Shown here: positions 2,499-52,755 of the stretch, in pieces
How the letters are laid out: every line of letters starts with the position of its first letter
Position numbering within the stretch: position 1 is the first letter of the stretch
From: an uncultured Candidatus Saccharibacteria bacterium
GTDB taxonomy: Bacteria > Patescibacteriota > Minisyncoccia > Phycocordibacterales > UBA5272
NCBI GenBank assembly: GCA_964621595.1
Contig: CAZUPO010000001.1
Location: 14,758-78,757 of the forward strand
Direction: 5' to 3'
Length of the DNA stretch: 64,000 nucleotides
Translations under genes and position numbers: made by a program
Notes under the pieces: generated by a model
Told to the model about the DNA's origin: nothing
What the model saw: the letters and a program-made list of their open reading frames with translations, nothing else
The model's database searches: none

Positions 2499-2533
2499 CT
2501 ACCCATTCTGCTTTTTCCATTTGTAGAGTGTTG
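2499..2533. repeat. Direct repeat copy 1 (32/35 nt identical to 3201-3235), immediately upstream of GC-rich cassette A
   Basis: ctacccattctgctttttccatttgtagagtgttg versus ctacccattctgctttctccattcgtagagtgtta. Confidence 0.7.
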
Positions 2534-2552
2534 TATATTTAATTTAAGCAAA

Positions 2553-2581
2553 TTGACCTACTGTTTTTAAACTGATAGTGT
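2553..2581 (+). promoter_or_regulatory. sigma70-like promoter TTGACC-17-TAGTGT for cassette A
   Basis: Hexamer spacing 17 nt; followed by AAGGAAAGGG RBS and ATG at 2630. Confidence 0.5.
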
Positions 2582-2629
2582 GTTACGAGCAGGTTCCCAA
2601 ATTGCAGCACACTAAGGAAAGGGCGGCAC

Positions 2630-3145
2630 ATGATAAGAAACATCGTAACCGGGGATATCACCGATCCGATGATCAATCCCGGCGACATCATCATCGGCAT
2701 GAACTCGAAACTCACACAGGCTTCCGCGATCGGGAGGCCGTTCGTACGCAACGTGGAGGTGATCAAGCAGATCGATCTCGGATCGGTGCTCACTTTCAAC
2801 TTCGAGCCGGGGCGCTTGCTCCACATGCTCATCTGCCACAAGATCGGCAAGGGTGGTTGGGCGTCGGCAGACAAGTTCGTGCGCTTCTGCCTGGACTACC
2901 TGTGGAAGGAACACGGGCGTCGGCAATACGGAGTCGTCCAGATCGGAACTGGTTCCATCGGCAAGCGTGACGGCGCCGACTCGGCCGCCATCAGGACGGC
3001 GATGACCACCAGCTTCCTCGAGATGGATCTCTTCATCAGACCCGAGGAAGAGGAGGCGGCGACACGGGTTACACAAACCCCGCTCGTCCCCTTCCGCACC
3101 TGGAGCATGGACAAGGGTGAACGCGAGATCCGCGTCCATCACTGA
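2630..3145 (+). CDS. Macro-domain-like protein (ADP-ribose-binding fold); GC-rich cassette A
   Basis: High GC in an AT-rich context. N-terminal VTGDITD...DIIIGMNSKL...AIGR and a later G-rich IGTGSIGK loop resemble Macro-domain motifs (V.GDIT / hhhNAAN..L / G.G.yG), but the NAAN motif is degenerate (GMNS). Confidence 0.45.
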   Translation: MIRNIVTGDITDPMINPGDIIIGMNSKLTQASAIGRPFVRNVEVIKQIDLGSVLTFNFEPGRLLHMLICHKIGKGGWASADKFVRFCLDYLWKEHGRRQYGVVQIGTGSIGKRDGADSAAIRTAMTTSFLEMDLFIRPEEEEAATRVTQTPLVPFRTWSMDKGEREIRVHH

Positions 3146-3162
3146 AACGAAGGCATGTCCAG

Positions 3163-3196
3163 AAGGCCCCCGTCCGAAAGGAAGGGGGCCTTTTGA
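3163..3196 (+). terminator. Intrinsic terminator (AAGGCCCCC / GGGGGCCTT stem followed by a T-run)
   Basis: GC-rich hairpin followed by TTTTG, directly after the cassette A stop. Confidence 0.7.
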
Positions 3197-3200
3197 AATA

Positions 3201-3235
3201 CTACCCATTCTGCTTTCTCCATTCGTAGAGTGTTA
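3201..3235. repeat. Direct repeat copy 2 (native 3' end of rlmB)
   Basis: Overlaps the rlmB stop codon and last codons; pairs with 2499-2533. Confidence 0.7.
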
Positions 3236-3947
3236 CAGCAATTGCATTAGACGCGTTCAGCGACTCACATAAGCCGTTAATAGGTATCGAGAGTTTGAAA
3301 TCACAATGTTCAAGAGTTTTGTGTGCTATCCCCTGACCTTCACTGCCAACGACTATAACAGTATTTTCATCAAAAACAGTCTCTGTTAGACGTGAATCAC
3401 CTCCCCCCGTTAAGCCGTATACCCAGAAACCTTTTTCTTTAAGAGATAAAAGGGTGTTGTTAACATTACTCACTGAAATTATTGGTATAGAAAAAATGGC
3501 ACCAGAGGATGCTTTGGCAACGACACTCGTTATTTGTGCCTGATTATGTTCTGGCATAATAACTGCATCAACACCAAAGGCCAGACAACTTCTCATGATT
3601 GCACCGACGTTGTGCGGATCTTCAAGATGATCTAGAACAACAATGATCTTTTTACCTTCCTTTTCTTCTGCTAAAACCTCGGGAAGAGTCTGATACAAAC
3701 TACCCCCATCGATCAATACCGCCACCCCCTGATGAACAGCACCCCTCCCAACATGATGTTCCAATTCTTCTTCTGTAACAATGCTGTACGTGAGACGATT
3801 AGACTGAATTGTACTCATGATGAAAGAGTCTTTTTCCCCAGCTCGTGTGAGATACACTTTTTGAATAGGAACACGGGCACCTCGTACACGCGCTTTAAAT
3901 AATTCTTCGACCGTATTTTTACCGTAGATATATAATCCCTGTGACAT
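3201..3947 (-). CDS. rlmB: 23S rRNA (guanosine-2'-O)-methyltransferase RlmB / SpoU-TrmH family
   Basis: N-terminal L30e-like substrate domain plus C-terminal SPOUT motifs (VVLDHLEDPHNVGAIMRS, VYGLTGGG, ESLNASNA). Confidence 0.85.
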   Translation of the reverse strand: MSQGLYIYGKNTVEELFKARVRGARVPIQKVYLTRAGEKDSFIMSTIQSNRLTYSIVTEEELEHHVGRGAVHQGVAVLIDGGSLYQTLPEVLAEEKEGKKIIVVLDHLEDPHNVGAIMRSCLAFGVDAVIMPEHNQAQITSVVAKASSGAIFSIPIISVSNVNNTLLSLKEKGFWVYGLTGGGDSRLTETVFDENTVIVVGSEGQGIAHKTLEHCDFKLSIPINGLCESLNASNAIAVTLYEWRKQNG

Positions 3948-4004
3948 ACTAGACAGTATAGCACAAATATTGTGATATAAAAATGCGGGACCTTTACTAC
4001 TATC

Positions 4005-4563: not shown

Positions 4564-7500
4564 CTATTTAACGGTGACAGAATCGCGTACTACATAAGTA
4601 CCACGACAAGTGAGTGTATATGTTTTTCCGGTGACACTACTATAGAGACCGACATCTTCTGATCCAGTAGTATTCTTACCATTAGACCACGCGCCACTTG
4701 CCATACAAGACTTTAGATTCTCACCAGTCCAGGACAGAATAACTCTTCGTTTTCCATCTACCATTTTTGTGGAGTAGTTTAATGTAACAGCAGGATTCTT
4801 GTTTGTGTCTTTTGTTAACACAGTCTCAACAGCAGAAGAAATTGATTTTACCGGTGAGGCAATTGCGCCAAGTGCTTTATCTTTTAGAGCAGTGGCGGCA
4901 CGAACACCGTAATTCTTTGTGTCAAAACGAATTTCGCGAGATATCTCCCCGCCTGGTCCTCCACAGGTTAGTTTGAATCCTTGGGTTCCACCAACCTTAT
5001 CGACAGCATATGAACCTGATGTTTCCTGTGCACCGGACCATGAACCTGACGCCTTACACCAAAGTGCGTTCGTCGTTTCCCAGAGGAGTGACACTGGCTT
5101 TCCATATTGAATGATGTGAGGAGTTGCTACAAAGGAAAGTGTTGGCGGTGGAGAGTCTGAGAAATTAACCTCAACAAAACTTGAGATAGATCCCCCGTCG
5201 CCGGTACACGAGAGTACATAGTTTTTACTTCCTGTTATTGGTTGCGTAGTAAAGGTACCCGCAACATTCTTTACACCGTCCCAATCACCAGAAGCATCAC
5301 AAGATGAAACGTTTTCCGCTTTCCAAACAAGAGTAATTGGTTTATTTGGCGTAATCTTACTCTCCTGCATAGAGAATCGTAATTTTGGCTGTGGGGGCGG
5401 GTTCGTAGAAACAACCTCACGTCTAGGAGATCTAATTGTTTGAATAACAATGACTGGTTGCTCAGCGTTTATTGTTATAGGTAATGGTACAGATGGATCA
5501 CGATCGGGTATCACATTTTGTTGAGTAATTGTTTGTCGTACAGTCTCCAATATCTGAGGCACCGCAACTGTCTGTTCTTGTGCTACCGTTGCAACCGAAG
5601 TTGTATTCGAAACCGCTTCTCCTGAGGTAGTAACTGCGGCTGTAGAGAAAGTTTCTGCTGGTACAACCTGTGGAGCAACTGAAATACCGACCGATTGAGT
5701 TATTTCGCCTCCATCACCTGTACACGTAAGAAGATATGATTTGTCACTGGTGAGTGAATTTACTTGCTGTTCTCCTGCAAGACCTCTATTTACCGTCACC
5801 CAATCACCCCCAGAACTATAACACTCTGTTGCATTTCTTGCCCTCCATGAAAGAGTTGCTGTGCCACCATAAGAAACCGCATTCTCAGATGAACTAAAAG
5901 TAAGCGTCGGTGGTACTTTTCTAATTATTTCTACAGCCGTTACAGCTGGTGCCTGGTTTACAGTAATAATAGCTGACTGACTAGCCTTTCCACCGGGGCC
6001 CGTGCATTCAATTGTATATGTTGTATTTGCGCGCGGAGACACTGTTTGTGTATCAGATGTCGATGTTTTATCTGTCCATGGAGCACTACACGCCGTTGTG
6101 TTAGTGGAAGACCACGTGAGTATACTAGATTGCCCTTCAGTAATAGTTGTCTGTGATGAATCCAAACTCACTTGTGGTAATGGTTTAGTTTCTGCAACTA
6201 CCTGTGGAGCAGAAACAGTTACGGTAATTGCCTGCTCACCCCTTCCCCCTTCTCCAGTACACGAAATTCTATACGTGGTAGTTGTAGATGGCGAAACTGT
6301 CTCTGATCCAGATATAGCCGAATTATTTCCCCATGATGACGTACACGTCGTCGCGTTAGTAGAACTCCAAGATAACCTTGTGCTTTGCCCTTGGGTAAGG
6401 GTCGAGGGAGACGCATCGAGTGTGACCGTTGCTGGTTGAGCAACTTGGACTACCGGGGCTGGACCTACAGCGATATTTACAGAATCTCGTGCTTCTCCAC
6501 CAACTCCTGAACAAGTAATTGTAAATACAGAACTTTCAGTAAGTGGAGGTGTTGTAAAAGAGGAAACAGTGGCAACTGGACCCGTTCTCCATGAACCTGT
6601 ACATGAATCCGCGGCTGTGGAAGACCAGTTAAGCACCGTTGCTGTGTTGTATGTTAGATTATTTGATCTTGAAGTCAATGAAACTGTTGGTACAGGTGGA
6701 GGCGGTGCCACAGTGATGGTGATAGATTTTTTTGTTTCTTGTCCGGCAGCATTATAACAACTAATAGTGAATCTTTTATCTTGGACCAATCTAGGAAGAT
6801 CTTCTTGGCCCGATAGTGACTTATTACCAGACCAATCGTCACTTGCTACACATCGTGTAGCGTTCCCGGAGGACCAATACAGGGTTGCTGGTGAATTATA
6901 TGGGAGACTATTTCCCGAAGAAGAAAAATCTATTGTTGCTACTGGCGTTGTACATGTGCTTGCAGTATTCACCCAACTCCCCCAGACAGGCTGACCATAT
7001 GAATCGGGACATGTACTCGTGCGCGTCTGGGTTACAGTACCATTCTGACCCGTTGGACATGAGATGGTCTGCTGTTCTGAAGATGTTCTACATGTGGGAG
7101 TTGGGGTAACGCATGTGTTTGTAGTATTCACCCAACCGCCCCAGACAGGCTGACCGTATGGATCAGGGCATGTACTCGTACGTGTCTGTGTTATAGAGCC
7201 TGTTTGCCCAGTTGGACAAGACACAGTCTGGTTTTCTGACGATGTCCTGCACGTGGGAGTTGCTGGTGCGTCGTTCATGGTCACAAACGCAGACTCTTCT
7301 GGTAACCATGTCCCCACAGGATTTACGTTATAACAACTAAGCACAAAGAATGGTTTTGTAAACGTACTTTTTGCAGGAAGATTTCTAATGACTTCTGTTC
7401 CACTTACTGGTTTGTACCCGGAAGACCATAATCCAACTGGGACACTTCTTCCGTAACAACTATTCCCCTGAAAGACACCAACATTTTTTGCATCCCAAGA

Positions 7501-10688: not shown

Positions 10689-10775
10689 AGTTTATGTAGT
10701 AATCCTAAGTATACATGACCCACACGCTAACTATGTTATAATATCCAACCAGATCCTAACCCGGAAGGAAACGTC

Positions 10776-11129
10776 GTGGAAACCAGCGAAATGAAGGTAT
10801 ACCCGTTTGGACTGATGTTCCAGATCGCCGTGAGCGCCCTGCCGGCAATGAGGCGGCTCATTTGCTTGCATGTCTATGGCGGGGTTCAAACTACCACCAT
10901 TCGGTCGCAAACAGGGCTCTCGAGGAAGTTCCGCCTGCGCGTTGGAGAGAAAATTCAGGACCTCCCGGTTCCTCTACCCAGAAGCGAAGAGGTGCCCGAA
11001 CTCTCGTCCAGGGAGGTACGAAAATTGCTTGAGGACCTCGGCATCACGCCCAAGAAGTTGTCGGAAATGTTCAACATCCCCGAGGAGATCCTGAAGGAGA
11101 TGTGCCCACCCCAGCCTCCACTACAATGA
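10776..11129 (+). CDS. Hypothetical protein, GC-rich cassette B (GTG start)
   Basis: GGAAGGA RBS 5 nt before GTG at 10776; extended -10 TGTTATAAT at 10734-10742; high GC; no family recognised. Confidence 0.45.
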   Translation: METSEMKVYPFGLMFQIAVSALPAMRRLICLHVYGGVQTTTIRSQTGLSRKFRLRVGEKIQDLPVPLPRSEEVPELSSREVRKLLEDLGITPKKLSEMFNIPEEILKEMCPPQPPLQ

Positions 11130-11138
11130 AGCACCAAG

Positions 11139-11170
11139 CCCGGCCCGAATAAGGCCGGGCCAGTTTGTTT
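11139..11170 (+). terminator. Intrinsic terminator (GCCCGGCC…GGCCGGGC followed by TTTGTTTAT)
   Basis: Perfect GC hairpin followed by a T-rich tract after the cassette B stop. Confidence 0.7.
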
Positions 11171-14597: not shown

Positions 14598-14626
14598 TTG
14601 ACAAAATACTATAATAATAGTAGTAT
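14598..14626 (+). promoter_or_regulatory. sigma70-like promoter TTGACA-17-TAGTAT for cassette C
   Basis: Consensus -35 with correct spacing, upstream of the GC-rich ORF at 14683. Confidence 0.5.
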
Positions 14627-14682
14627 TAAAAGTTAAGTAGTACCCCAAATAACCCCCCCGATATCCCCTAAAAGGAACCGCC

Positions 14683-15171
14683 ATGAAAGTGCTCCAAAAA
14701 CTCGTCGACGTGGTGTGGAACCACGTCATGCAGTCCATCTTCACCCTCTTCCTCTTCAGCGCCATGGGCTTCATTACCAAGTACTCCTACAAGAGCCTCC
14801 TCCAGGAAACCGGGGTGAGCGGCCTCATCCTCCCCCTCGTGATCCTCACCTTCATCGCCACCCTCTTCTTCTGGGGGATGTGCCAGAAGGAGCCCTTCCT
14901 GCGGCTGAAGTCCCCCTGGATGTTCTTCGGGAATGGCGTTGGCGCCCTAGCGATGCTCATCATCATCATCGCGTGGATGGCCCTCGCGTGGACCATGTCG
15001 GAAGGCCTGGGCTGGTACTTCAGCCCCGAAGACGCCCACTATCTGATCCACGGGTCGGTTAACATCTCCGGCTTGGCGATGATCGGCTGCGCGGCGCTGT
15101 ACTTCTTCGATGTCGGGGTGGCGGACTGGATCCGCCAACGGCTCGAGAAGTTCCGCTTCATCAAGAAGTAA
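14683..15171 (+). CDS. Hypothetical polytopic membrane protein (~4 TM), GC-rich cassette C
   Basis: AAAAGGAACCGCC RBS; hydrophobic segments; high GC. Confidence 0.5.
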   Translation: MKVLQKLVDVVWNHVMQSIFTLFLFSAMGFITKYSYKSLLQETGVSGLILPLVILTFIATLFFWGMCQKEPFLRLKSPWMFFGNGVGALAMLIIIIAWMALAWTMSEGLGWYFSPEDAHYLIHGSVNISGLAMIGCAALYFFDVGVADWIRQRLEKFRFIKK

Positions 15172-15175
15172 ACCC

Positions 15176-15235
15176 AACCTGGACGACGGAGGCGTCCAGG
15201 TGTAGTACCCCCCGGTTAACCATACCGGGGGTTAT
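15176..15235 (+). terminator. Two consecutive intrinsic terminator hairpins
   Basis: ctggacgacggaggcgtccagg and cccccggttaaccataccgggggtt, followed by T-rich sequence. Confidence 0.6.
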
Positions 15236-15328
15236 AGTTTTATATACAGAAAAAATTTCTTACCAGTTTCGAATATCTAAACAAATTTTAATAAAAAAAA
15301 TAGACAGATTAATTTTAAAACAATGTAT

Positions 15329-15358
15329 TTGACAGATCGTCAATATATATGGTATAAT
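15329..15358 (+). promoter_or_regulatory. Consensus sigma70 promoter TTGACA-18-TGgTATAAT (extended -10) for cassette D
   Basis: Perfect -35 and -10 hexamers with a TG extension; RBS AAAGG before ATG at 15399. Confidence 0.65.
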
Positions 15359-15398
15359 ATATATTAGTCGTCCCCTACAACCAACGAAAGGTCCGCCC

Positions 15399-15881
15399 AT
15401 GACCACCGAATACCGCACTCTCGAACCGAACGTGTTCACCCCCGTCGACGCGACGTTCATCACCAACAACCCGAACCTCCCCTTCAACTGGCTGATCCCG
15501 GGCATCGACGACATCCTCATGAACCTCGAGATCTGGCAGATCGGCCTGGTCATCCTCGCCTTCATCATGCTGAACTTCATCAACCGGCTGCGCGATCGCA
15601 TCAAGCAGCACGAGCAGTGGAAGTCGCAAGCCGCGCCGGAAATCGTCGCGAAGTACGCGGCGGAGAACACTCCGGCCGCGTGCGTGAAGAAGGTCATCGC
15701 CTTCTTCCGCGAGTACAAGTTCGGCGCGGCGTTCAAGCGCGTCGTGATGGTGGTCGGCGGCACGATCTGCGCCGCCATCATCATGTACTTCTTCGCCGGC
15801 ACCGCCGGCGCCTTCTGGGCCGCCGCAAGCGCCCTCGGCATGTTGTACCAAGCGACGAAAAAAAAGGAGGTGACGGACTAG
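15399..15881 (+). CDS. Hypothetical membrane protein (2-3 TM), GC-rich cassette D
   Basis: High GC; hydrophobic helices; own promoter and terminator. Confidence 0.5.
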   Translation: MTTEYRTLEPNVFTPVDATFITNNPNLPFNWLIPGIDDILMNLEIWQIGLVILAFIMLNFINRLRDRIKQHEQWKSQAAPEIVAKYAAENTPAACVKKVIAFFREYKFGAAFKRVVMVVGGTICAAIIMYFFAGTAGAFWAAASALGMLYQATKKKEVTD

Positions 15882-15907
15882 AAACCCCACCCACCCCCTG
15901 CGGCACA

Positions 15908-15938
15908 ACGGCCGGAGCCTCGCGCTCCGGCCGTTTTA
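15908..15938 (+). terminator. Intrinsic terminator (ACGGCCGGAGC…GCTCCGGCCGT followed by TTTT)
   Basis: 11-bp GC stem plus a T-run after the cassette D stop. Confidence 0.7.
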
Positions 15939-16112
15939 ACTTTTATACTGCCGACAAACAAACTATTTTACCTTCTTTGGTTTCTTTTTTTCTTTACGAT
16001 GAAATTTTTCTTCTTTTGCCATATGCAGAGAAGTGTATATCAAAAATCAATCCTCATATGTGGATAGGATCACTTTTTGGTACATGGTGTAAATCTATGG
16101 TAGAGTGATTCT

Positions 16113-33722: not shown

Positions 33723-33733
33723 TTTGCCGCCTT

Positions 33734-33982: not shown

Positions 33983-33992
33983 AAGGGCAAGT

Positions 33993-35397: not shown

Positions 35398-35510
35398 ATT
35401 ACTCCCCGGATCTATGTATATAAACTATGTGAGTTTGTATGCATATATGTGGGGAGAAATACCCCACAAAAATTGTCTTTTCACCACCAACCAAAGTCAG
35501 GAGATTACCC

Positions 35511-36278
35511 ATGTGCACAGTCAATGATGGTAGTTCGTTCTTCCGGCCGATGACCATGATGGACATCGCCTTCATTGCCACCAAGTACAACGAGTTGCCG
35601 AGGCAATTGCTGTACGACCTCTACGAGGCAATGACGGATCACAACACGGTCCGGCCGGCGGTTATGCTGGTGATCCTCGAGAGCCTTCACCGGCTCAAGA
35701 GCGGTCATCTGGGTGCCAGCGCCTACGGTGCCGTCTTCGCCTACAGCGCCCTTCAGATCAAGGATGGTGGTGATGGCAACATCTTCCACCGGTACCAGGA
35801 TCCGATCATGTCGCACATCCACGACGCGATGCTTCAATTCGCTCTCGCGGAACGCAACATGCGCAAGGTTCAGGAAGTCCTCCGTCGCTATCAGTACGAC
35901 TTCGTCCACTTTTGCGATTGCGGCTGCATAACCACTGTGGTCGACGTCGATTTCATGGAGACGGAGGAGTACAAGGCGGTGAACCTCATCCGCTCCTATG
36001 GCGAATCGATTGGGGCGCCGGTGCACCAGGTGAAATCGATCGACGATCTCCCCCTTCACCTGACCGACATGCATCCGCACGAGGTCGCCGGTTACAAGAA
36101 GATCTGGGGCACCCTGCAGATGCTCCCCGTCCATCCCTTCGAGGGTACGCTGGAACTCTCGCAGGCATTCGAATACTTGACCAGCATGAAGGAGGGTAGC
36201 AATGCCGGTAGCGGCCGTCGTTCGTGTATCAACGCAGTGGGGGCCAAGACACCGGTTGCAGATCACGCTGCCCGATAA
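35511..36278 (+). CDS. Hypothetical protein I1 (255 aa), GC-rich cassette
   Basis: AGGAG RBS 8 nt before ATG at 35511, where GC rises; the 35439 start in the ORF track lacks an RBS. Confidence 0.45.
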   Translation: MCTVNDGSSFFRPMTMMDIAFIATKYNELPRQLLYDLYEAMTDHNTVRPAVMLVILESLHRLKSGHLGASAYGAVFAYSALQIKDGGDGNIFHRYQDPIMSHIHDAMLQFALAERNMRKVQEVLRRYQYDFVHFCDCGCITTVVDVDFMETEEYKAVNLIRSYGESIGAPVHQVKSIDDLPLHLTDMHPHEVAGYKKIWGTLQMLPVHPFEGTLELSQAFEYLTSMKEGSNAGSGRRSCINAVGAKTPVADHAAR

Positions 36279-36501
36279 CGATGTGGTTAACGTACGCCTC
36301 CATGCGTGCGAAGACTGCAGCTTCATCGAGTGGAGTAAAGCAACCGGAAAAGAGGTTGCTCAGACAACCGTAAGTGAAGCATTCCTCCGGGCTGTGGCGA
36401 ATTTGGTCACCTCCGGAGAAAACCGAAAACTCCCTGAACTTGTCGCCGAAGGGCAGCAAGCACTTGGAGATTACGCCAAGAACCCGCCCTTCAACACATA
36501 G
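36202..36501 (+). CDS. Hypothetical protein I2 (99 aa), GC-rich, overlapping the I1 3' end out of frame
   Basis: 77-nt overlap with I1; followed by a weak terminator at 36519-36550. Confidence 0.35.
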   Translation: MPVAAVVRVSTQWGPRHRLQITLPDNDVVNVRLHACEDCSFIEWSKATGKEVAQTTVSEAFLRAVANLVTSGENRKLPELVAEGQQALGDYAKNPPFNT

Positions 36502-36597
36502 GGACCAGGATTGTGGCAAGCCGTCCTCGTGAGGGGGCGGTTTATTTTTATAATTCTAATCTTTGTGCCTCCAATAGACTCCAGAACATATTGCAAT

Positions 36598-40041: not shown

Positions 40042-40650
40042 CTAGATATTTTTATACCCTTTCCATTCTCTTTTCAGAAGACTGTAAAGAAGATCGTTTT
40101 GATATTCTCCGTTTACCTTGTGATAGTCTCTTAAAATTCCTTCGCACGTAAATCCGAGTCTTTCTGGTATTGCTTTGCTTTTGAGATTATTCATCTCACA
40201 CTGGATTTCAATACGATTGAGATTTAATTCCGTAAAACCATAGTTGATGATTGCTTTCACACACGCAGTCATGATCCCCTTACCCTGATACTCTCTATCG
40301 AGCCAATACCCTATGGCGGCCCTGTGGTGATCGTGTCGGATATCATGAAAGCCCATTGAACCGACCCACTTCCCCTCGTACAGAACTCCGAAGTCGGCGC
40401 TTGTTTTTTCTTCAAAACCCTTTTTACATTTCAGAATAAAATCTTCTACATCTTTATCAGATGTTGTTGTATCGATCCAATCCAAATATGGACGAAACGC
40501 TTCTCGATTCTTTTCCACCAACTGAAAAAAGTGTTGAGCATCTTCCGGCTTTCTTAATCGTAAAGAAAGATTATCGTGTACTTTTAGTTCAAAATCCATA
40601 CTGGAAGTATACCACTTGGGTTGTTGGGCAGGATTGAAATTTAAAAGCAA
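40042..40650 (-). CDS. GNAT-family N-acetyltransferase (RimJ/RimL-like)
   Basis: GYWLDREYQGKGIMTACVKA motif. Confidence 0.8.
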   Translation of the reverse strand: MLLNFNPAQQPKWYTSSMDFELKVHDNLSLRLRKPEDAQHFFQLVEKNREAFRPYLDWIDTTTSDKDVEDFILKCKKGFEEKTSADFGVLYEGKWVGSMGFHDIRHDHHRAAIGYWLDREYQGKGIMTACVKAIINYGFTELNLNRIEIQCEMNNLKSKAIPERLGFTCEGILRDYHKVNGEYQNDLLYSLLKREWKGYKNI

Positions 40651-40695
40651 AAACCCGCAGAAGCGGATCGTTGCTAATGCGAGTGGTATTGGGCC

Positions 40696-41061
40696 CTAGG
40701 GCTGGACGGTCGTCGCCTTGAAGAGGTCGAATTCGTCGTCACCCAGCGGGTTGTTGTAGTCCGGCATGAAGTCCATGTCGCGACGCGCATCCACGGAACT
40801 ATCGTGAGTGCGGAAGTCGCAGTCGTCACCGAAGGTGATGCCGGGATCACCGTTGGCGGCAGCCCCTTCGCAGATGTGCCGCTGGAGTTCCTCCGCCTTG
40901 GGAGTCATGACGCGGAGCACCTTCATGCCACCCATCCGACCACGCTGCACCTTGGTGATGCCGAAACCCGTGGCCGTGTTCCTCAGGTACTTGATGAGCC
41001 GCTCCACCTCCACGGAGGTGTCGTAGCCGGTGTAGACATCCAAGCAGTACGATTCTTGCAA
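40696..41061 (-). CDS. Hypothetical protein J, GC-rich cassette (probable TTG start)
   Basis: AAGGAG RBS 7 nt before TTG at 41061, where GC rises; the alternative ATG at 41121 lacks an RBS. Confidence 0.4.
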   Translation of the reverse strand: MQESYCLDVYTGYDTSVEVERLIKYLRNTATGFGITKVQRGRMGGMKVLRVMTPKAEELQRHICEGAAANGDPGITFGDDCDFRTHDSSVDARRDMDFMPDYNNPLGDDEFDLFKATTVQP

Positions 41062-41184
41062 GGCAATTCTCCTTTTCAAAATTACTCTATTAAGGGAAGG
41101 GTTGTACCCGTCTTGTAACATACTACAATATGAAAATAATTCTGTCTAGTTGCTGGTCGAATCGAACTAAAAATTCTTGGAACA

Positions 41185-41474
41185 AAATTGGATGTATTAT
41201 ACATTCCTCTAATCTTCAGATTTACTATCAAACTCCGTCTGCATTCTGGTCATCCATGCGTTTTTATTTTCACCAGTTCTGGCTTCCATACTCATAATAC
41301 TAGCCGTGTGTGCTTCATCAGATGTCATGTGAGGCATTCCTTTCTGGATAACTTCCATAAAAGTATCTCCAGAAAATTTCTCGTCGCAAGTTCCTCCCAA
41401 TTCTCGACATGTAAATGTTTTGCTCATATGAATTGAGTATACCATTTTTTCTGCGCTATTTTTGTGTGTTGCTG
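41185..41474. repeat. 290-bp direct repeat R1a (100% identical to 44141-44430) carrying a DUF1059 gene
   Basis: Identical ORF translations at +2956 offset; nucleotide-level identity over 290 bp. Confidence 0.9.
41209..41427 (-). CDS. DUF1059-family small protein (copy 1)
   Basis: MSKTFTCRELGGTCDEKFSG…H…H fits the DUF1059 C..G.CD pattern; the plus-strand 82-aa ORF is antisense noise. Confidence 0.6.
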   Translation of the reverse strand: MSKTFTCRELGGTCDEKFSGDTFMEVIQKGMPHMTSDEAHTASIMSMEARTGENKNAWMTRMQTEFDSKSED

Positions 41475-41580
41475 AGCGTCTCGGGTTAGAACCAAAGGGT
41501 TCATTGCACTGTAAGGCTTTGGTGGCTATTTTTAGTATAGCATTTCCACGCGTCTCGAGCGCTGTAAAATTACTGTCGAA

Positions 41581-42996
41581 TTACTTATAGTTGTTTCTTT
41601 TGTGTTCAATATAATCAACGAGCAATTCATAAAATAAACTCTCGTCTCTAACATCTTCTGCCTTTACAAAAGAATTTTCAAAAGTATCCCATTCAATTAG
41701 ATATTTTTTCCAATAGAATGATTTTTCTGGTCTTTCTGGTTTTAGCGATTTAAGCATAGCCGTTATATAAGGCTTGAACGGCATTCTCTCTTGTGTTCTT
41801 CGTGGTGATTCTTTGATGATAGAAATGACTTTTAGGAAGCCTTTTATGTCTGTAAAGCTTAATATTGCGACCCGGATAGCAATATTAAAATACATTTCAA
41901 ATTCATCAGTTCTCAAGTTTTGAATATTAAATCCACCCTTTTTTAACTCTAGGAATTGAAACCGAGTAGGCTTAAGCAACCCTCGAAGTGTCAACGCCTG
42001 ACTTTCAACTGCACGAACAAAAATATGTTCAAGAAACAATTTAATATATCCTCCCTCCCCAATAGCACTTATCATTTGAGGATTTTCATTTTTTATACTT
42101 TTAACTATTTCTTCAACAGTATCTACCACAGCTTGCTGGTTATCGAAGCGATACGGAGCAATAGTAAAAAACTTATTCACGTAACCTGAAAAGTCCGTCT
42201 CAACGCCATACTTGTGATGAAATATGTGCTCAAGATTTGCGTAATCTGCGACAACGATTATGATATCGAACCCAAACCTATTCTCATTTTCTCGTTCAAA
42301 AAAGGCAGAGAGGAGATTTAGCACCCTAAATATATGCTCTGGATCTACCCTGTCTAAATCATCCAAAATAAGAACACTTTTCTTTATGCCTTTTTGTTGT
42401 GAAATTTTTTCTTTTACCAGATTGCTAACATAATCCGGCTCAGTAATATTCTTAGATTTTATTTCAGCAGTATATTTTTCTATTAGGCCTTTATCACCTG
42501 CCTTATATTCTGTCTTAAACTCCTGAAAATCCTTATCGAGATCTAGTAAGTCTTTCAACGGTCTGCCTAATTTTGCTAAAACACTGGTTATTGGATCGGC
42601 AGACAACGAGGCAACATCTTCACCTCCTGAAATAATTTTCTGAAGAACATCGTTTACTGTATATCTATCTTTTATCCACGACCAAAATAGTAGAGACGAT
42701 TCTTTGATCCCGTTCACAGATTTTTCTTCAAAAATATCTTTATTCTTTTTTAGAAGCTCGATAATGACATCGTATTTAAGGAGACCCACAATATCATCAT
42801 TAGCACTAATTTGATAGTTTATTGGATACAAATGAAAGGCTTCATATGAATCATGATTTTCTTTGAAAAACTCATTGAGAAAATGTGTCTTTCCTGCACC
42901 AAACTTACCTGAAAATAGAATTCGAGAATTTTCTTCCATTGAAAGAAACTCACTGAAATCTTTCTTTGCGGTATCAATTGGTATTTTAATAGCCAT
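41581..42996 (-). CDS. KAP-family P-loop NTPase
   Basis: Walker A GKFGAGKTHFL and the KAP-specific Walker B VLILDDLDRVDP; 471 aa. Confidence 0.75.
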   Translation of the reverse strand: MAIKIPIDTAKKDFSEFLSMEENSRILFSGKFGAGKTHFLNEFFKENHDSYEAFHLYPINYQISANDDIVGLLKYDVIIELLKKNKDIFEEKSVNGIKESSLLFWSWIKDRYTVNDVLQKIISGGEDVASLSADPITSVLAKLGRPLKDLLDLDKDFQEFKTEYKAGDKGLIEKYTAEIKSKNITEPDYVSNLVKEKISQQKGIKKSVLILDDLDRVDPEHIFRVLNLLSAFFERENENRFGFDIIIVVADYANLEHIFHHKYGVETDFSGYVNKFFTIAPYRFDNQQAVVDTVEEIVKSIKNENPQMISAIGEGGYIKLFLEHIFVRAVESQALTLRGLLKPTRFQFLELKKGGFNIQNLRTDEFEMYFNIAIRVAILSFTDIKGFLKVISIIKESPRRTQERMPFKPYITAMLKSLKPERPEKSFYWKKYLIEWDTFENSFVKAEDVRDESLFYELLVDYIEHKRNNYK

Positions 42997-43060
42997 GAGT
43001 TGATTATATCGCTGTTAGTAAAAAAACAGAATGGACGCATCCTGAGCGACGCTCTTGTTT

Positions 43061-43251
43061 GCTGGGGTACAAGGACTCGGTCACGAAGTCTATTTTTAGA
43101 TTACAAAAAATATAAGACTTCTCGACCCCGTATTCGAGTCCTTGCCGAAAGTGACGCAGGTCACTTTCTTACCCCATCAAAGCGTAAGTTTAAAGAATGC
43201 TACGCATACAGTATATAATTCGCTTTGCTGGGGTACAAGGACTCGAACCTC
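43061..43251. repeat. 191-bp direct repeat R2a (copy of 46597-46786) containing two tRNA-Gln 3'-end fragments
   Basis: tRNA 3'-end copies at 43059-43080 and 43227-43252; internal 9-bp perfect hairpin GAAAGTGAC-GCAG-GTCACTTTC. Confidence 0.85.
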
Positions 43252-43381
43252 TTCGGATGCCAGGAACTCAGCTCAAGTTGGGTTGATATGGACAAAGTAT
43301 AAAAAATATTGTAGTGTACTTTTTAGCGGGTCACTCTTCCCCAACCAATTAAGAGGATCATTCCACCTATGAGGAGGCTCT

Positions 43382-43981
43382 ATGCCCGCACTCGATCGAC
43401 AAGAAGGATACTTGGTAGCGCACGAAACCCTGCTGGCCGAACTCAAGGCCATGTGGGCAGATCCCAAGGTCCAGCTCTACAACGATGCGGAGCTTCCCGC
43501 GTTCAGCGATACCGCCGTGTTCCTGGCCGGGCCGACGTCGCGCAACCAGATCCTGGAATGCCAGTGGCGTGCCAAAGCGGTCGCGTTTCTGCGCAAATAC
43601 GGCTTCGAAGGATGGATCTACTGCCCGGAACCGCGGGGATTCGAAGCTCCCGGCGATTTCACCGAACGGGGCTACATCCACCGCTGGGAATCCAGTCGGC
43701 TCTTCACGCCCACCACGTGTGCTGAGTACGCCGTGTTCTGGATCCCGCGCAAGGCCGACGAACTGCTCGGGCTCAACACGAACCTCGAGCTCGGCATCAT
43801 GATCGGCAAGTGCATGATGCGAAACGATTACGAGCGGAGGAAGCTCTTCGTCGGTTGGCCGGACAGCGCGGAGCGCATGGGACTCCCGAACCATTACATG
43901 GGCGAGATCGTCCTCGAGCGGTACACCGCGCTTGACACAATCTGCGCCGACCTGGCCGCATCCGTCAGGAATCGCCGTTAG
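43382..43981 (+). CDS. Nucleoside 2-deoxyribosyltransferase / DNPH1(Rcl)-like protein, GC-rich cassette K
   Basis: AVFLAGPTSRN (cf. YFCGSIRGG) and NTNLELGIMIGK (cf. S.GVGYELG, catalytic Glu); RBS AGGAGG. Confidence 0.5.
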   Translation: MPALDRQEGYLVAHETLLAELKAMWADPKVQLYNDAELPAFSDTAVFLAGPTSRNQILECQWRAKAVAFLRKYGFEGWIYCPEPRGFEAPGDFTERGYIHRWESSRLFTPTTCAEYAVFWIPRKADELLGLNTNLELGIMIGKCMMRNDYERRKLFVGWPDSAERMGLPNHYMGEIVLERYTALDTICADLAASVRNRR

Positions 43982-44001
43982 GATCTCTTCACGAGGTCCG
44001 G

Positions 44002-44030
44002 AAGCCACCTTCGGGTGGCTTTTTTCTTTC
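44002..44030 (+). terminator. Intrinsic terminator (GCCACC-TTCG-GGTGGC followed by TTTTTTCTTTC)
   Basis: UUCG tetraloop hairpin plus T-run. Confidence 0.75.
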
Positions 44031-44140
44031 ATAAAATAAGTTAAAAGTTCGAGTGCCCTAAGAGGGTCAATAAAACTACATTTTTTGTTCACACAAAACC
44101 CTTATGAATTCAGTGCAACTTGGACGCTAGAACCTAGCTC

Positions 44141-44430
44141 AAATTGGATGTATTATACATTCCTCTAATCTTCAGATTTACTATCAAACTCCGTCTGCAT
44201 TCTGGTCATCCATGCGTTTTTATTTTCACCAGTTCTGGCTTCCATACTCATAATACTAGCCGTGTGTGCTTCATCAGATGTCATGTGAGGCATTCCTTTC
44301 TGGATAACTTCCATAAAAGTATCTCCAGAAAATTTCTCGTCGCAAGTTCCTCCCAATTCTCGACATGTAAATGTTTTGCTCATATGAATTGAGTATACCA
44401 TTTTTTCTGCGCTATTTTTGTGTGTTGCTG
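44141..44430. repeat. 290-bp direct repeat R1b (identical to 41185-41474)
   Basis: See R1a. Confidence 0.9.
44165..44383 (-). CDS. DUF1059-family small protein (copy 2, identical)
   Basis: Identical to copy 1. Confidence 0.6.
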   Translation of the reverse strand: MSKTFTCRELGGTCDEKFSGDTFMEVIQKGMPHMTSDEAHTASIMSMEARTGENKNAWMTRMQTEFDSKSED

Positions 44431-44506
44431 GGAGTTGGGTGGGAAGTTGAAACTTTTTTGTTTGTAAATGGGGTATAATTCAATTATATATATTAATTAT
44501 AAAAAA

Positions 44507-46554: not shown

Positions 46555-46596
46555 ATAGCTTTAATGTTTTAATACTCTTCGAACTCGCTCAACGTG

Positions 46597-46786
46597 GCTG
46601 GGGTACAAGACTCGGTCACGAAGTCTATTTTTAGATTACAAAAAATATAAGACTTCTCGACCCCGTATTCGAGTCCTTGCCGAAAGTGACGCAGGTCACT
46701 TTCTTACCCCATCAAAGCGTAAGTTTAAAGAATGCTACGCATACAGTATATAATTCGCTTTGCTGGGGTACAAGGACTCGAACCTC
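46597..46786. repeat. 190-bp direct repeat R2b; its last 24-26 nt are the genuine 3' end of tRNA-Gln
   Basis: Differs from R2a by a single G deletion in the first tRNA-fragment copy. Confidence 0.85.
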
Positions 46787-46833
46787 GATACTCAGGACCA
46801 AAACCTGATGTCCTACCATTAGACGATACCCCA
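46763..46833 (-). tRNA. tRNA-Gln (anticodon UUG)
   Basis: The reverse complement gives TGGGGTATCGTCTAATGGTAGGACATCAGGTTTTGGTCCTGAGTATCGAGGTTCGAGTCCTTGTACCCCAG: 7-bp acceptor, TTTTGGT anticodon loop, GGTTCGAGTCC T-loop; close to E. coli tRNA-Gln. Confidence 0.85.
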
Positions 46834-50823: not shown

Positions 50824-50890
50824 GGTGATTATTATTGTATGAGTATGGTGTAAGCGTACCACTTAGGCTAGAGTGGTGTCAAAATGACAT

Positions 50891-50915
50891 AGGAAAAGCC
50901 GCGCGTGGGCGCGGC
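50891..50915 (-). terminator. Intrinsic terminator for L1 (GCCGCGC-GTGG-GCGCGGC, T-run on the minus strand)
   Basis: Sits inside a 46-bp segment identical to 51382-51427. Confidence 0.65.
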
Positions 50916-50938
50916 GTCTTCCAACCAGCGGGTGATGA

Positions 50939-51283
50939 TCATTGCTGCGGGCGCGGTGGACCGATGAAGGGACTCCACTTCAACACCCCGCCGAAGGGCT
51001 CCTCCTCGCGAGCGACAACTTCAGTGCGTTCGAGGTCTTCGAGAACCTTCAGCACCTCTTCGTCGGTACATGGGCTGTAGCCCCATTCCATCAACTGACG
51101 ACCGATAGCGACGACTATCTGCCCGGTGCGCAAGGGCCCACCTTGCTCGAGGACCTCATACCTGACCATTCGGGCGAGTATCCCTAAACGCCGCTTCCCC
51201 TGCTCACGGATCCTGAGAATCTCGACCCCTCCGTAGAGAAGGGCTATGAACAGAACGGGCCAGAAATCCTGGATGACTTGCAT
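50939..51283 (-). CDS. Small membrane-anchored protein L1 (N-terminal TM plus C-terminal wHTH-like), GC-rich
   Basis: Promoter TTGACT-17-TAGTAT; 5'UTR motif TATTCCAA; RBS GGAGGAGG. Confidence 0.5.
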   Translation of the reverse strand: MQVIQDFWPVLFIALLYGGVEILRIREQGKRRLGILARMVRYEVLEQGGPLRTGQIVVAIGRQLMEWGYSPCTDEEVLKVLEDLERTEVVAREEEPFGGVLKWSPFIGPPRPQQ

Positions 51284-51384
51284 GACACACCTCCTCCAAT
51301 TGGAATATATTCATACTAGAATAGAGGTGAGGCGAAGTCAAATACTTTCAAATAATTTAGATAGTATAAAAATAAAATTACCAT

Positions 51385-51409
51385 AGGAAAAGCCGCGCGT
51401 GGGCGCGGC
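51385..51409 (-). terminator. Intrinsic terminator for L2 (identical to the L1 terminator)
   Basis: Same hairpin within the 46-bp perfect repeat. Confidence 0.65.
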
Positions 51410-51433
51410 GTCTTCCAACCAGCGGGTAAAGGG

Positions 51434-51799
51434 TTACGACGAGAGTGGCTCCCATATGTAACTCTCACCCTCCTTCTTCCGAATCACCCTCCCTTCTCGG
51501 TGCAGTTTCTCGAGAATGGTCATCACCCTTTCTTCGGATACGGGTGGTCTGAACGGGATGCTCCAGTAGTCATTGACGATGCTAGTAACCCCCACGACGT
51601 TTCCCCTACCGATCATAGGAAGTCCCCGAGTTTCGATGAACAACTCGAGCGTTTTCTCGCTCGTCTTCTTCCAAGTCAATTTGAGGTAAGCATGTTCCAC
51701 GAGCCACCGCAGGAAAGGAAACAGGCAGATCAATAACAACAACCAGGCAATCCAGTGTTGATACTTCTCCAAGATCGTGGTAACCATGGAGAGTTGCAT
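51434..51799 (-). CDS. Small membrane-anchored protein L2 (paralogous architecture)
   Basis: Promoter TTGACC-17-TATAAT; TATTCCAA motif; RBS GGAGGAGG. Confidence 0.5.
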   Translation of the reverse strand: MQLSMVTTILEKYQHWIAWLLLLICLFPFLRWLVEHAYLKLTWKKTSEKTLELFIETRGLPMIGRGNVVGVTSIVNDYWSIPFRPPVSEERVMTILEKLHREGRVIRKKEGESYIWEPLSS

Positions 51800-51896
51800 G
51801 ACACCTCCTCCTTACTAGGTTGGAATAATTTAATTATACAATAAAAAAATATTTTGGTCAATTCATCTTACAGCATTGAAATATAAAAATTTCCAT

Positions 51897-51924
51897 AGGA
51901 AAAGCCGCGTGTACAAACGCGGCT
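51897..51924 (-). terminator. Intrinsic terminator for L3 (AGCCGCG…CGCGGCT)
   Basis: Degenerate version of the L1/L2 terminator. Confidence 0.6.
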
Positions 51925-51946
51925 GATCCAACAGCGAGTGAGACCG

Positions 51947-52282
51947 CTACGCAGGGGTGATTTTCCACCCCACGACTGCCCTGGTCGGTACCCATACCTG
52001 GGCAACGTTACCTAGGCGTTTACGCTCAGAGAGAATGCTGAGCACCTCTTCTTGGGTAAAGCGATCTCCGTTGTCGATGAAGCCCTCATGCCACTTCATC
52101 GCGTAATCGTTAACCTGCATGAGAATTTCGTCGATCGAGGCGGGATCATTGGAGAGGTGCTGGTTGAGCAACCCCTCCAGGTATTTCCTCCTCTGTTCGA
52201 TATTCTTGCGCACAAGGAAATCTATACCCCGTGCAAAGCAGACAATCGCCAGTATGGCGATTGCAAATACGGTCATTTTCAT
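51947..52282 (-). CDS. Small membrane-anchored protein L3 (paralogous architecture)
   Basis: Promoter TTGACC-17-TATAAT; TATTCCAA motif; RBS GGAGGAGGG. Confidence 0.5.
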   Translation of the reverse strand: MKMTVFAIAILAIVCFARGIDFLVRKNIEQRRKYLEGLLNQHLSNDPASIDEILMQVNDYAMKWHEGFIDNGDRFTQEEVLSILSERKRLGNVAQVWVPTRAVVGWKITPA

Positions 52283-52344
52283 TGTAACAAACCCTCCTCC
52301 GTTGGAATACCGTTATTATACAACAAAAAATGTTCTGGGTCAAT

Positions 52345-52755
52345 CTACTGTCCTTGAGATCGCATTTGAGGTAAGCCATCACGTAACTGTAATGTTTCCG
52401 CTGTGATACTTCCATCACTATTTTGCGTGCCCATAATGACAACAGATGATCCGGTCTTCACATCACTTTTTACACCAGTGACTGACTTCAATACTTTGGT
52501 GGTATCTGTGACAACGATTACCTTGCTTCCACCATCACGCCCCTTGAGAGTTAACATTTGATTGTCGAAAGAAATGACTTCTCCTTGAGTTACTCCCCCT
52601 CCTCCGAAACCCCTTGAAGCACGTTGTCCCCCTTGAAACTGCCGTGGAGAATCAGAAGAAGATTTCTTCATTCCAGCATAATATCCTAGACCAGAAAAAA
52701 TAACTGCGGTAATAATGAGTGAACTGTATATTTGTTTTTTCGAATGTATAAACAT
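52345..52755 (-). CDS. Hypothetical membrane-anchored Gly/Ser-rich protein (last gene of the ABC efflux operon)
   Basis: N-terminal TM; AT-rich. Confidence 0.5.
   Translation of the reverse strand: MFIHSKKQIYSSLIITAVIFSGLGYYAGMKKSSSDSPRQFQGGQRASRGFGGGGVTQGEVISFDNQMLTLKGRDGGSKVIVVTDTTKVLKSVTGVKSDVKTGSSVVIMGTQNSDGSITAETLQLRDGLPQMRSQGQ

Follow-up and report, generated by a model that had tools for sequence, protein, structure and literature searches.

The window analysed here, a 64,000-nt stretch of contig CAZUPO010000001.1 (assembly GCA_964621595.1) from an uncultured member of the Patescibacteria (candidate phyla radiation, CPR), carries among its AT-rich genes a series of short GC-rich units, named here cassettes A to M, most of which have their own predicted promoter and all of which have a predicted terminator. 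We consider it probable, although well short of certain, that these are whole transcription units of moron-like build, taken from GC-richer Patescibacteria by natural gene transfer. The reading is carried by a composition step, a predicted architecture, reproducibility across assemblies, absence from relatives, the distribution of the cassette families, co-conservation of promoters, a codon dialect and two flanking repeats, from which we infer the direction and donor of the transfers, the mechanism of insertion, and the expression and function of the units.

When unit bounds are taken from the −35 box through the end of the terminator, the 13 units measured sum to 9,377 nt, that is, 14.7% of the window and 18.8% of the interval 2499-52345, and their GC content is 55.2%, whereas that of the window outside the units is 41.3%. 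The sliding GC profile displays sharp islands of 50-62% GC at the positions where an earlier note, made from the sequence alone, had listed them; the background, which that note had put at 35-40%, was measured at about 41%, with host genes at 33-48%. At third codon positions (GC3), the 18 open reading frames (ORFs) of the cassettes range from 0.59 to 0.93 (mean 0.75) and the 52 host ORFs from 0.23 to 0.51 (mean 0.35), so that the two ranges do not overlap (Mann-Whitney p = 1.7e-10). The GC and codon-usage check proposed in the note has thus given a clear step, with disjoint GC3 ranges. Along the units, GC is 0.28 in the 60-nt promoter region, 0.49 in the 5′ untranslated region (5′UTR), 0.65 in the final 60 nt and 0.33 past the terminator, and the GC-rich stretch corresponds to the extent of the predicted transcript. 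Translational selection was rejected as the cause of the high GC3, given that presumably highly expressed host genes have ordinary values (enolase 0.34, L9 0.33, L21 0.42, and likewise pyruvate kinase). Recombination tracts reaching into the flanking genes were also considered, but GC3 is slightly raised at some 3′ ends only and the pattern was unconvincing.

The cassettes follow a particular codon dialect, in which leucine is encoded by CTC (0.47) more often than by CTG (0.24), AAG, TTC and ATC reach 0.74, 0.90 and 0.83, respectively, and GCC is used about as often as GCG. This dialect, with its preference for CTC over CTG, matches that of GC-rich Patescibacteria. That is, in three GC-rich patescibacterial loci (L076, L129 and L153; an L with three digits denotes a locus or contig of a relative, as distinct from cassettes L1-L3) CTC is at 0.50-0.61, CTG at 0.16-0.17, AAG at 0.75-0.80 and ATC at 0.55-0.80, and GCC and GCG are balanced in the same way. 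Most GC-rich bacteria, unlike the cassettes, have a CTG-dominated leucine usage.

The host belongs to the Paceibacteria: the relatives of its DnaB in species genomes of the Genome Taxonomy Database (GTDB) are all Patescibacteria, mostly metagenome-assembled genomes (MAGs) of Paceibacteria/Parcubacteria, the nearest being 79-86% identical. Exact-protein look-ups with DnaB, L21, L27, TrmH and a 136-aa neighbour led to contigs in JGI, ENA and Logan assemblies of at least 10 samples. These are 99.6-100% identical to the window over cassettes A-H and L1-L3 including the junctions, and two SPAdes contigs of one sample, both spanning junctions between host and cassette DNA, have coverages of 5.1x and 4.2x. 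The cassettes are fixed in this population; apparent differences between strains were discarded, as they stemmed solely from gene calling or from contigs that break off in the L repeat.

At least 10 samples, assembled independently, yielded the same junctions with 99.6-100% identity, and both the chimera and the synthetic origin that the earlier note had raised are therefore excluded. A chimera made during assembly or binning, with GC-rich fragments of another organism stitched into an AT-rich contig, could have produced the sharp composition steps, and the CysS gene on a short contig of a relative (L003) does have a hybrid appearance; yet the junctions were obtained with different assemblers, the two junction-spanning contigs have similar coverage and the unit boundaries fall exactly at promoters and terminators, which leaves a chimera hardly any probability. 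An engineered construct with codon-optimised inserts could be suspected from the consensus promoters, the clean terminators and the extreme codon choice of cassettes C and D (TTC 27:0, ATC 28:1) beside a host-like amino-acid usage, but its probability is practically nil: the organism is an uncultured CPR bacterium present in many environmental metagenomes, cassettes A and K have natural homologue families (62 and 106 homologues, respectively, in Patescibacteria metagenomes), there are no vector, marker or standard-part sequences, and similar units occur in related MAGs. As for contig L003 (positions 1-810; JGI 3300045347), the first 200 residues of its CysS are about 50% identical to those of the window and encoded at 54-58% GC, the last 260 residues are 100% identical, and a GC-rich partial ORF precedes the gene; either the gene has recombined with that of a GC-richer relative, or the short contig is a chimera.

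Layout of the units and their predicted signals

Promoters and terminators were predicted by consensus scans and manual reading. The units and the features bracketing them are as follows (promoters are written as −35 box, spacer length and −10 box, with a preceding TG where the −10 is extended).

2499-2532, unstranded: trmH relic (left arm), a copy of the last 34 nt of trmH, 6 nt past the stop codon of an AcrB-like gene
2553-3194, plus strand: cassette A; TTGACC-17-TAGTGT, Shine-Dalgarno site, ORF 2630-3145 (171 aa, GC3 0.80, predicted macrodomain-like fold), GC hairpin and T-run 3165-3194
3201-3234, minus strand: right arm of the 34-nt direct repeat, formed by the 3′ end of the live SpoU/TrmH methyltransferase gene
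10715-11170, plus strand: cassette B; ATGACC-16-TGtTATAAT, ORF 10776/10791-11129 (112-117 aa, GC3 0.7), terminator 11138-11160; between a PD-(D/E)XK nuclease gene and a UvrD/AddA-like gene, opposite strand
14598-15241, plus strand: cassette C; TTGACA-17-TAGTAT, ORF 14683-15171 (162 aa, 3-4 transmembrane-like segments, GC3 0.91), terminator 15209-15231
15329-15945, plus strand: cassette D; TTGACA-18-TGgTATAAT (12/12), ORF 15399-15881 (160 aa, 2 transmembrane-like segments, GC3 0.93, strict ORFan), terminator 15907-15935
22009-22851, minus strand: cassette E, in the DnaB|RecR gap; TTAACA-17-TGaTAGAGT, E1 22240-22767 (175 aa, very basic), E2 22065-22253 (62 aa), terminator 22019-22048
23578-23978, minus strand (inferred): unit F, GC-rich, no credible ORF, RNA fold predicted to be very stable; bounding terminators at 23552-23575 (minus strand) and 23936-23976 (41-nt palindrome)
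24365-24821, plus strand: cassette G; TTGACT-17-TATAAT (11/12), ORF 24442-24756 (104 aa, 2 transmembrane-like segments, GC3 0.79), terminator 24790-24811
27090-27835, plus strand: cassette H; TTGACT-17-TATTAT, H1 27167-27517 (116 aa), H2 27529-27774 (81 aa), hairpin 27793-27825
33650-34352, minus strand: cassette I; TTGAAA-17-TACTAT, I1 33993-34241 (82 aa), I2 33734-33982 (ATG at about 33963), long GC hairpin at about 33660-33721
35400-36553, plus strand: cassette M (I1/I2 of the earlier note); M1 35511-36278 (255 aa), M2 36202-36501 (99 aa, start uncertain), terminator 36518-36543
40642-41148, minus strand: cassette J; TAGACA-17-TAGTAT, ORF about 40696-41061 (start codon TTG preceded by AAGGAG, about 121 aa, GC3 0.83), terminator 40652-40669
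43226-43250, minus strand: copy of the tRNA-Gln 3′ end (last 25 nt), directly left of cassette K
43283-44033, plus strand: cassette K; TTGATA-18-TATTGT, ORF 43382-43981 (199 aa, nucleoside 2-deoxyribosyltransferase-like, GC3 0.79), terminator 44000-44023
46762-46833, minus strand: intact tRNA-Gln(UUG)
50888-51341, minus strand: cassette L1; TTGACT-17-TAGTAT, ORF 50939-51283 (114 aa, N-terminal transmembrane segment), terminator 50898-50915
51382-51861, minus strand: cassette L2; TTGACC-17-TATAAT (11/12), ORF 51434-51799 (121 aa), terminator 51392-51409
51893-52343, minus strand: cassette L3; TTGACC-17-TATAAT (11/12), ORF 51947-52282 (111 aa), terminator 51903-51924

All four of the promoter-like sites scoring at least 11/12 are cassette promoters, as are nine of the 23 scoring at least 10/12, in the right orientation and within about 130 nt of the start of a cassette, where 0.27 would be expected by chance (Poisson p = 1.6e-11). 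Of the approximately 15 terminator-like hairpins with at least five G-C pairs, ten lie at the end of a cassette; for A, H and I the terminator was read by eye. In total, a promoter-like site is predicted in 12 of the 13 units and a terminator hairpin in 13 of 13. The earlier note had attributed to every unit a near-consensus sigma70 promoter of its own, but the matches of A (TTGACC-17-TAGTGT), E, I, J and K are moderate only (8-9/12) and M has no clear site. Its statement that each unit carries one or two ORFs holds except for F. Regulatory modules common to unrelated cassettes were not found among the other ten units, but only within L1-L3, and a C/A-rich 5′UTR motif, TTCCmAAC, was rejected as a shared signal for being too frequent across the window.

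The neighbours of the units include rpmA, rplI, rplU, cysS, dnaB, recR, eno and pyk. The note had placed every unit between conserved housekeeping genes, but some flanking genes encode GNATs, hypothetical proteins or a KAP NTPase. In cassette E, E2 begins before E1 has ended (ATG...TAA), an arrangement like that of a coupled pair. Two long plus-strand ORFs, one of 225 aa at 22054-22731 and one of 162 aa at 33636-34124, were dismissed as antisense artefacts of GC3 periodicity, since frame-wise GC places the true genes, E1/E2 and I1/I2, on the minus strand. The AT-rich head of cassette E also holds a plus-strand promoter-like sequence facing recR (22761-22790; TAGTCA-18-TATAAT), which may have taken over recR expression once E separated dnaB from recR. 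Unit F may be an imported structured RNA: its predicted fold has z = −7.0 on the plus strand and −9.3 on the minus strand, the minus strand has an extended −10 (TGATACTAT) and a terminator, and no Rfam family was matched.

Unit sites in relatives and flanking repeats

The loci of relatives used for the synteny comparison number 80 and cover the region of cassettes B-H. The genes for AddA-like protein, L27, L9, CtpA, CysS, DnaB, RecR, L21, RmuC and YqeY are syntenic in dozens of these loci, and the ORFs of cassettes B-H have no tblastn match in any of the 80. The DnaB|RecR gap, which holds E, measures 886 nt in the window versus a median of 60 nt in 74 relatives, and the RecR|L21 gap, which holds F, 432 nt versus a median of 132 nt in 64 relatives. 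As these gaps are short in the relatives, E and F are gains, each lying between genes that are adjacent there. The relatives carry units of the same kind at lower density (e.g. L014 at 4784-5077, with a 12/12 promoter and a terminator, and L017 at 893-1930), including unrelated cassettes of L013 and L015 in the same DnaB|RecR gap, and the payloads of these units show no mutual resemblance.

G and the pair C/D do not lie between genes that are adjacent in relatives, where their slots are occupied. The L21|RmuC slot is filled in the relatives also (median gap 432 nt), by a gene for a small protein with two transmembrane segments on the opposite strand, and the GC3 of this slot family varies in genomes of equal GC (0.60 in L010, 0.59 in L016, 0.31 in L018, 0.38 in L023 and 0.67 in L014). 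A block of about 90 nt containing back-to-back promoters of L21 and the slot gene is conserved in the window, and cassette G therefore has a resident promoter. The G ORF matches the slot family with a profile E-value of 0.026, in a tiny database, and would be either a replacement or an extremely diverged orthologue. The slot between AddA and a 113-aa gene, occupied by C and D in the window, holds unrelated host-like transmembrane genes in the relatives. The repeated cassette-type insertions proposed in the earlier note are thus upheld in substance, the sites of E and F being empty in 64-74 relatives, but not for G, which shares its promoter and slot and is no plain insertion. The comparison of loci that the note had suggested, then, gave empty sites for E and F and occupied ones for G and C/D, and some units are insertions, while others fit replacement within a variable slot.

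Two units are flanked by repeats. Cassette A lies between two copies of the trmH 3′ end that form a 34-nt direct repeat (2499-2532 versus 3201-3234), identical at 32 of 34 nt and with an alignment score of 29, where shuffled sequences average 7.5. The two mismatches are both A in the relic and G in the live copy, which completes trmH. Cassette K lies in a 3.5-kb insertion that ends at the intact tRNA-Gln and is bracketed by a direct repeat of about 195 nt (43050-43250 = 46592-46786), made up of 165 nt of flank and the last 25 nt of tRNA-Gln; the insertion also holds a copy of a DUF1059-like gene and three AT-rich ORFs (33-37% GC) without Pfam match. K is located 3′ of tRNA-Gln in three genomes (the window, L087 and L089), and K-family genes are found just 3′ of tRNA-Tyr in three further contigs, making six contigs with tRNA-Gln or tRNA-Tyr. 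The tRNA-Gln locus thus appears to be a stacked integration hot spot, and the arrangements at A and K would fit recombination at gene 3′ ends, either site-specific or by single crossover. L1-L3 are tandem paralogues: identity reaches 94% in the promoter blocks and the 53-nt terminator blocks (94% for the terminator blocks of L1 and L2), while their ORFs no longer match one another by BLAST.

Origin of the units

Homologue searches in large databases covered A, D, K and M1. The K family has 106 homologues, of which the named ones are from Pacebacteria or Moraniibacteria. Its genes have a GC content of 0.49-0.59 in 20 loci whose flanks range from 0.36 to 0.55, with an exception of 0.41 in one 24%-GC contig; that is, K blends in where contigs have 51-55% GC and is an island where they have 36-42%. 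In the three closest genomes the promoter, 5′UTR and terminator of K align along with its ORF while the neighbours differ. For one genome pair, identity at four-fold sites is 0.57 for K versus 0.38 for DnaB, and the K protein is more diverged than DnaB (74% versus 82% identity), a pattern that would fit transfer after the hosts split, followed by fast protein evolution. For the A family there are 62 homologues, and all named ones are again from Patescibacteria. Where genome GC is 55-60% (L129 and L153), the gene looks native and keeps a conserved AlaRS...infA-rpsM neighbourhood; where it is 32-40% (L130 and L152), the gene is an island. The promoter form TTGAC[CT]-17-TAG[AT][GT]T is common to cassette A and the family members in L152, L129 and L153. 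M1 has 37 representatives only, in 1.8 billion. On the viral side, no PHROG match was obtained for the 18 cassette proteins, no relative in five IMG/VR scans (the A and K families, M1, E1 and C) and nothing by tblastn against INPHARED for M1, E1 and A, and the 64-kb window contains no phage Pfam domain, integrase, capsid or other phage gene.

The GC content of mobile DNA usually lies below that of its host; the units are GC-richer. In the proposed course of events, a Paceibacteria host of about 41% GC would have acquired, over time, at least 12 complete foreign transcription units, in each of which one or two small ORFs follow a sigma70-type promoter and a GC-rich 5′UTR with Shine-Dalgarno site and are closed by an intrinsic terminator. 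With start and stop signals of their own, the units would be expressed wherever they landed, without read-through into neighbours, and such self-containment would explain their tolerance between, or antisense to, tightly packed core genes (dnaB|recR, recR|rplU, addA|addB). The donors would most likely be GC-richer (55-65%) Patescibacteria, and the units would not have had the time, or would not be free, to drift toward host composition. At least two of them, A (last 34 nt of trmH) and K (3′-end fragments of tRNA-Gln, a hot spot), would have entered through recombination at resident gene ends. L1-L3 would derive from tandem duplication with subsequent fast divergence of the coding parts, and in G the coding part would have been replaced behind a resident promoter.

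Several known systems resemble the units in part. Phage morons of the HK97/HK022 type are defined as independent transcription units with their own promoter and terminator, located between genes adjacent in relatives and shifted in composition (PMC3594210). Like morons, the units are self-contained, hold one or few genes between a predicted promoter and terminator (PMC3594210), differ in GC from their neighbours (GC3 0.59-0.93 versus 0.23-0.51) and carry accessory payloads, often small or membrane proteins; unlike morons, they lie in a cellular chromosome amid ribosomal-protein, tRNA-synthetase and replication genes rather than in a phage or prophage, the cassettes tested yielded no phage gene, no PHROG and no relative on a viral contig, and the units are GC-richer than the host. 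Not being in a phage, they are therefore not members of the moron class. In the PeSL modules of T4-type phages, strong sigma70-like promoters and stem-loop terminators flank small ORFan genes (PMC2839356). The terminator-promoter blocks of L1-L3, far better conserved than the ORFs between them, recall these modules, as would be expected if the blocks guided recombination (PMC2839356), but homologous blocks are confined to that array, being absent among the other ten units, and the context is not phage. As in integrative islands that target tRNA genes or other gene 3′ ends, K is bracketed by copies of the tRNA-Gln 3′ end with later insertions stacked at the same tRNA, and A duplicates the trmH 3′ end and restores the gene. 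The units, however, are only 0.6-0.9 kb long and lack an integrase, 11 of the 13 have no repeat, and the K repeat includes 165 nt of flank, and so resembles the outcome of a Campbell-type single crossover rather than a short att core. Integron gene cassettes are small, mostly single-ORF and highly diverse in cargo, as the units are; they have no promoter of their own, carry an attC site at the end and stand in arrays beside intI/attI. The units, in contrast, are scattered, carry their own promoter and terminator, have 3′ hairpins that are unrelated outside L1-L3, and share no attC-like element, nor does the window hold an integrase; they are not integron cassettes.

Individually transferred genes have been reported in Patescibacteria, mostly exchanged between Patescibacteria and amounting to up to 13% of the genome (PMC12455944). 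The present case agrees in phylum, in transfers being mostly among Patescibacteria and in single-gene transfers being common (PMC12455944). In the passages of that report searched for promoters, there is no mention of them, and a promoter-ORF-terminator unit is not described there; the unit anatomy, the GC-rich directionality and an unusually high local density would be what the window adds to it (PMC12455944). With both moron anatomy (PMC3594210) and individual patescibacterial transfers (PMC12455944) on record, the claim of the earlier note that this is not a normal pattern of horizontal gene transfer was overstated.

A number of observations weigh against acquisition from GC-richer Patescibacteria. 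No strain-level presence or absence of cassettes was found, all contigs matching the window, so that no insertion has been caught in the act. Flanking direct repeats, sought at all units, were clear for A and marginal for K, and 11 of the 13 units have no insertion scar; nor was any recombinase domain detected in the ORFs of the 3.5-kb insertion or of the rest of the 64-kb window. Some cassettes appear to be resident variable slots rather than fresh insertions, and K, being next to tRNA-Gln in each of the three genomes, could have resided there for long. For D, a search of 5.8 billion proteins yielded no homologue and hence no donor. Moreover, the GC3 of the cassettes (0.75, and 0.91-0.93 in C and D) exceeds that of the sampled GC-rich Patescibacteria (0.65), whereas their GC1, GC2 and amino-acid usage are only half-way to the latter, and C and D have an AT-genome-like fraction of the amino acids F, Y, M, I, N and K (FYMINK, 0.34-0.36) despite their GC3. 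This combination of high GC3, half-way amino acids and AT-like FYMINK in C and D is predicted by no sampled donor.

These points bear on two further explanations. The cassettes might be resident, fast-evolving genes in permissive intergenic slots, kept GC-rich in place against the AT bias of the host, for which candidate forces would be selection for stable or structured mRNA, avoidance of AU-directed nucleases, or GC-biased gene conversion in frequently recombining DNA. The coincidence of the GC-rich stretch with the predicted transcript speaks for this, as do a GC3 above that of any sampled donor while amino-acid usage stays near the host (clearest in C and D), the G slot and promoter conserved in relatives, where the family spans GC3 0.31-0.67 at equal genome GC, the 0.5-0.6 GC of K-family genes in any host and the position of K at tRNA-Gln in three genomes. 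Yet the empty E and F sites in 64-74 relatives denote gains, A and K are compositionally native in GC-rich Patescibacteria, the CTC-rich dialect matches the latter, and enolase, L9 and L21 show no comparable rise in GC3. We also know of no mechanism that would single out these genes for GC-richness, and altogether consider residence unlikely. The cassettes could alternatively be cargo of an unseen GC-rich mobile element of Patescibacteria (phage, plasmid or integrative), placed at gene or tRNA 3′ ends by a recombinase acting in trans. Their anatomy fits the moron definition (PMC3594210), the gene or tRNA 3′ ends duplicated at A and K are att-like, six contigs have a K-family gene 3′ of tRNA-Gln or tRNA-Tyr, ORFan content is typical of mobile gene pools, and the L1-L3 blocks recall the T4-type PeSL modules (PMC2839356). 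Against such an element stand the lack of PHROG, IMG/VR and INPHARED relatives in the searches given above, a window devoid of integrase, capsid and other phage genes, the core syntenic context of A (AlaRS ... infA-rpsM) in GC-rich genomes and regulatory blocks that are not common to unrelated cassettes; we regard this origin as distinctly improbable.

The transcript-limited GC, the resident G slot and the flat GC of the K family are the reason why we retain a small probability for GC-richness as a maintained property of the units. In its broadest form, which we hold to be quite unlikely, Patescibacteria would share a pool of plug-in transcription units whose GC-richness is intrinsic, tied to the transcript, independent of the host, higher than in any sampled donor and, as in C and D, uncoupled from the amino acids used. 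If so, there would be either an unrecognised GC-rich vector that places units at gene 3′ ends or in intergenic slots but whose recombinase does not stay, or else selection or gene conversion that affects synonymous sites in just these genes of AT-drifting, streamlined genomes.

CPR/Patescibacteria genomes are tiny and thought to be streamlined. If the units were acquired from GC-richer Patescibacteria, 15-19% of a core region with replication, translation and glycolysis genes would consist of imported or replaced accessory units. This would be a simple route for very small genomes to sample small membrane proteins and nucleotide- or ADP-ribose-handling proteins without disturbing packed operons, and such genes are of the kind expected to matter in an episymbiotic life style. 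The flow from GC-rich to AT-rich genomes, together with the codon dialect, could serve as a practical marker for recent acquisitions in these MAGs, and binning or decontamination tools could wrongly trim such GC islands as contamination.

Predicted products and neighbouring features

Transmembrane-like segments are present in six of the 18 cassette proteins (C, D, G and L1-L3), and E1 is very basic. The earlier note had guessed a Macro-like protein for A and a DNPH1-like protein for K, and both guesses were borne out by AlphaFold2 models, built from family alignments, and Foldseek matches. The A model (pLDDT 84) matches TARG1 (4j5r; E = 1e-5, TM-score 0.54/0.65) as well as viral and bacterial macrodomains, and the protein, which has no Pfam match and no sequence match in the PDB, is predicted to adopt a macrodomain fold, with ADP-ribose handling as the predicted role. 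The K model (pLDDT 88) has its best PDB match in 4mcj, a putative nucleoside deoxyribosyltransferase (E = 1e-4, TM-score 0.59/0.75), and the protein scores 22.9 bits against PF15891 (Nuc_deoxyri_tr2; cut-off 30), for which many family members carry a precomputed match, pointing to a nucleoside-deoxyribosyltransferase fold. PDB sequence searches with the A and K profiles returned nothing. Pfam, PHROGs and PADLOC gave nothing for the cassette proteins except sub-threshold matches to CM_2 and, for K, Nuc_deoxyri_tr2, and winged helix-turn-helix (wHTH) hints in L2; the CM_2 match was rejected because it came from a wrong-frame ORF, and none of the PADLOC defence-system models matched a cassette protein. 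By these searches the remaining cassette proteins appear to be ORFans, and the payloads are taken to be accessory membrane proteins and predicted nucleotide- or ADP-ribose-handling proteins.

Cassettes J and K are adjoined by a 295-nt repeat with 99% identity (41185-41479 and 44141-44435), each copy of which encodes, on the minus strand, a 78-aa Cys-containing protein with a sub-threshold DUF1059 match (20.2 bits versus a cut-off of 21.1). Between the same two cassettes, the gene for a KAP-family P-loop NTPase (41581-42996) is AT-rich (34% GC), that is, an island of opposite sign, and its product has weak matches to the PADLOC candidate system PDC-S20. Between cassettes I and M, two 13-nt palindromes (GCAACCAAGTTGC and GCAACTTAGTTGC; 34491-34547) lie just upstream of an orphan ParA-like ATPase gene. 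Elsewhere, a 1278-aa ORF without Pfam domain contains an imperfect 151-nt direct repeat (6953-7262, 81% identical), and one JGI gene call splits this ORF (492 aa).

Upstream of the gene with a YqeY domain, a promoter-like TAGATA-16-TGgTATAAT is followed by a 270-nt GC-rich leader (25900-26198) without Rfam match; the RmuC|YqeY gap is GC-rich in several relatives too (0.53 in L014 and 0.51 in L024). Contig L091 (positions 1-3302; JGI 3300045356) matches the window up to 26002, after which different DNA, with a gene of more than 1150 aa, replaces YqeY, and this would be either a strain rearrangement or an assembly join. Lastly, an element of about 55 nt (15972-16025) is 76-87% identical in nine relatives, upstream of the 113-116-aa gene that adjoins rpmA (L27), and may be a leader or regulatory element.

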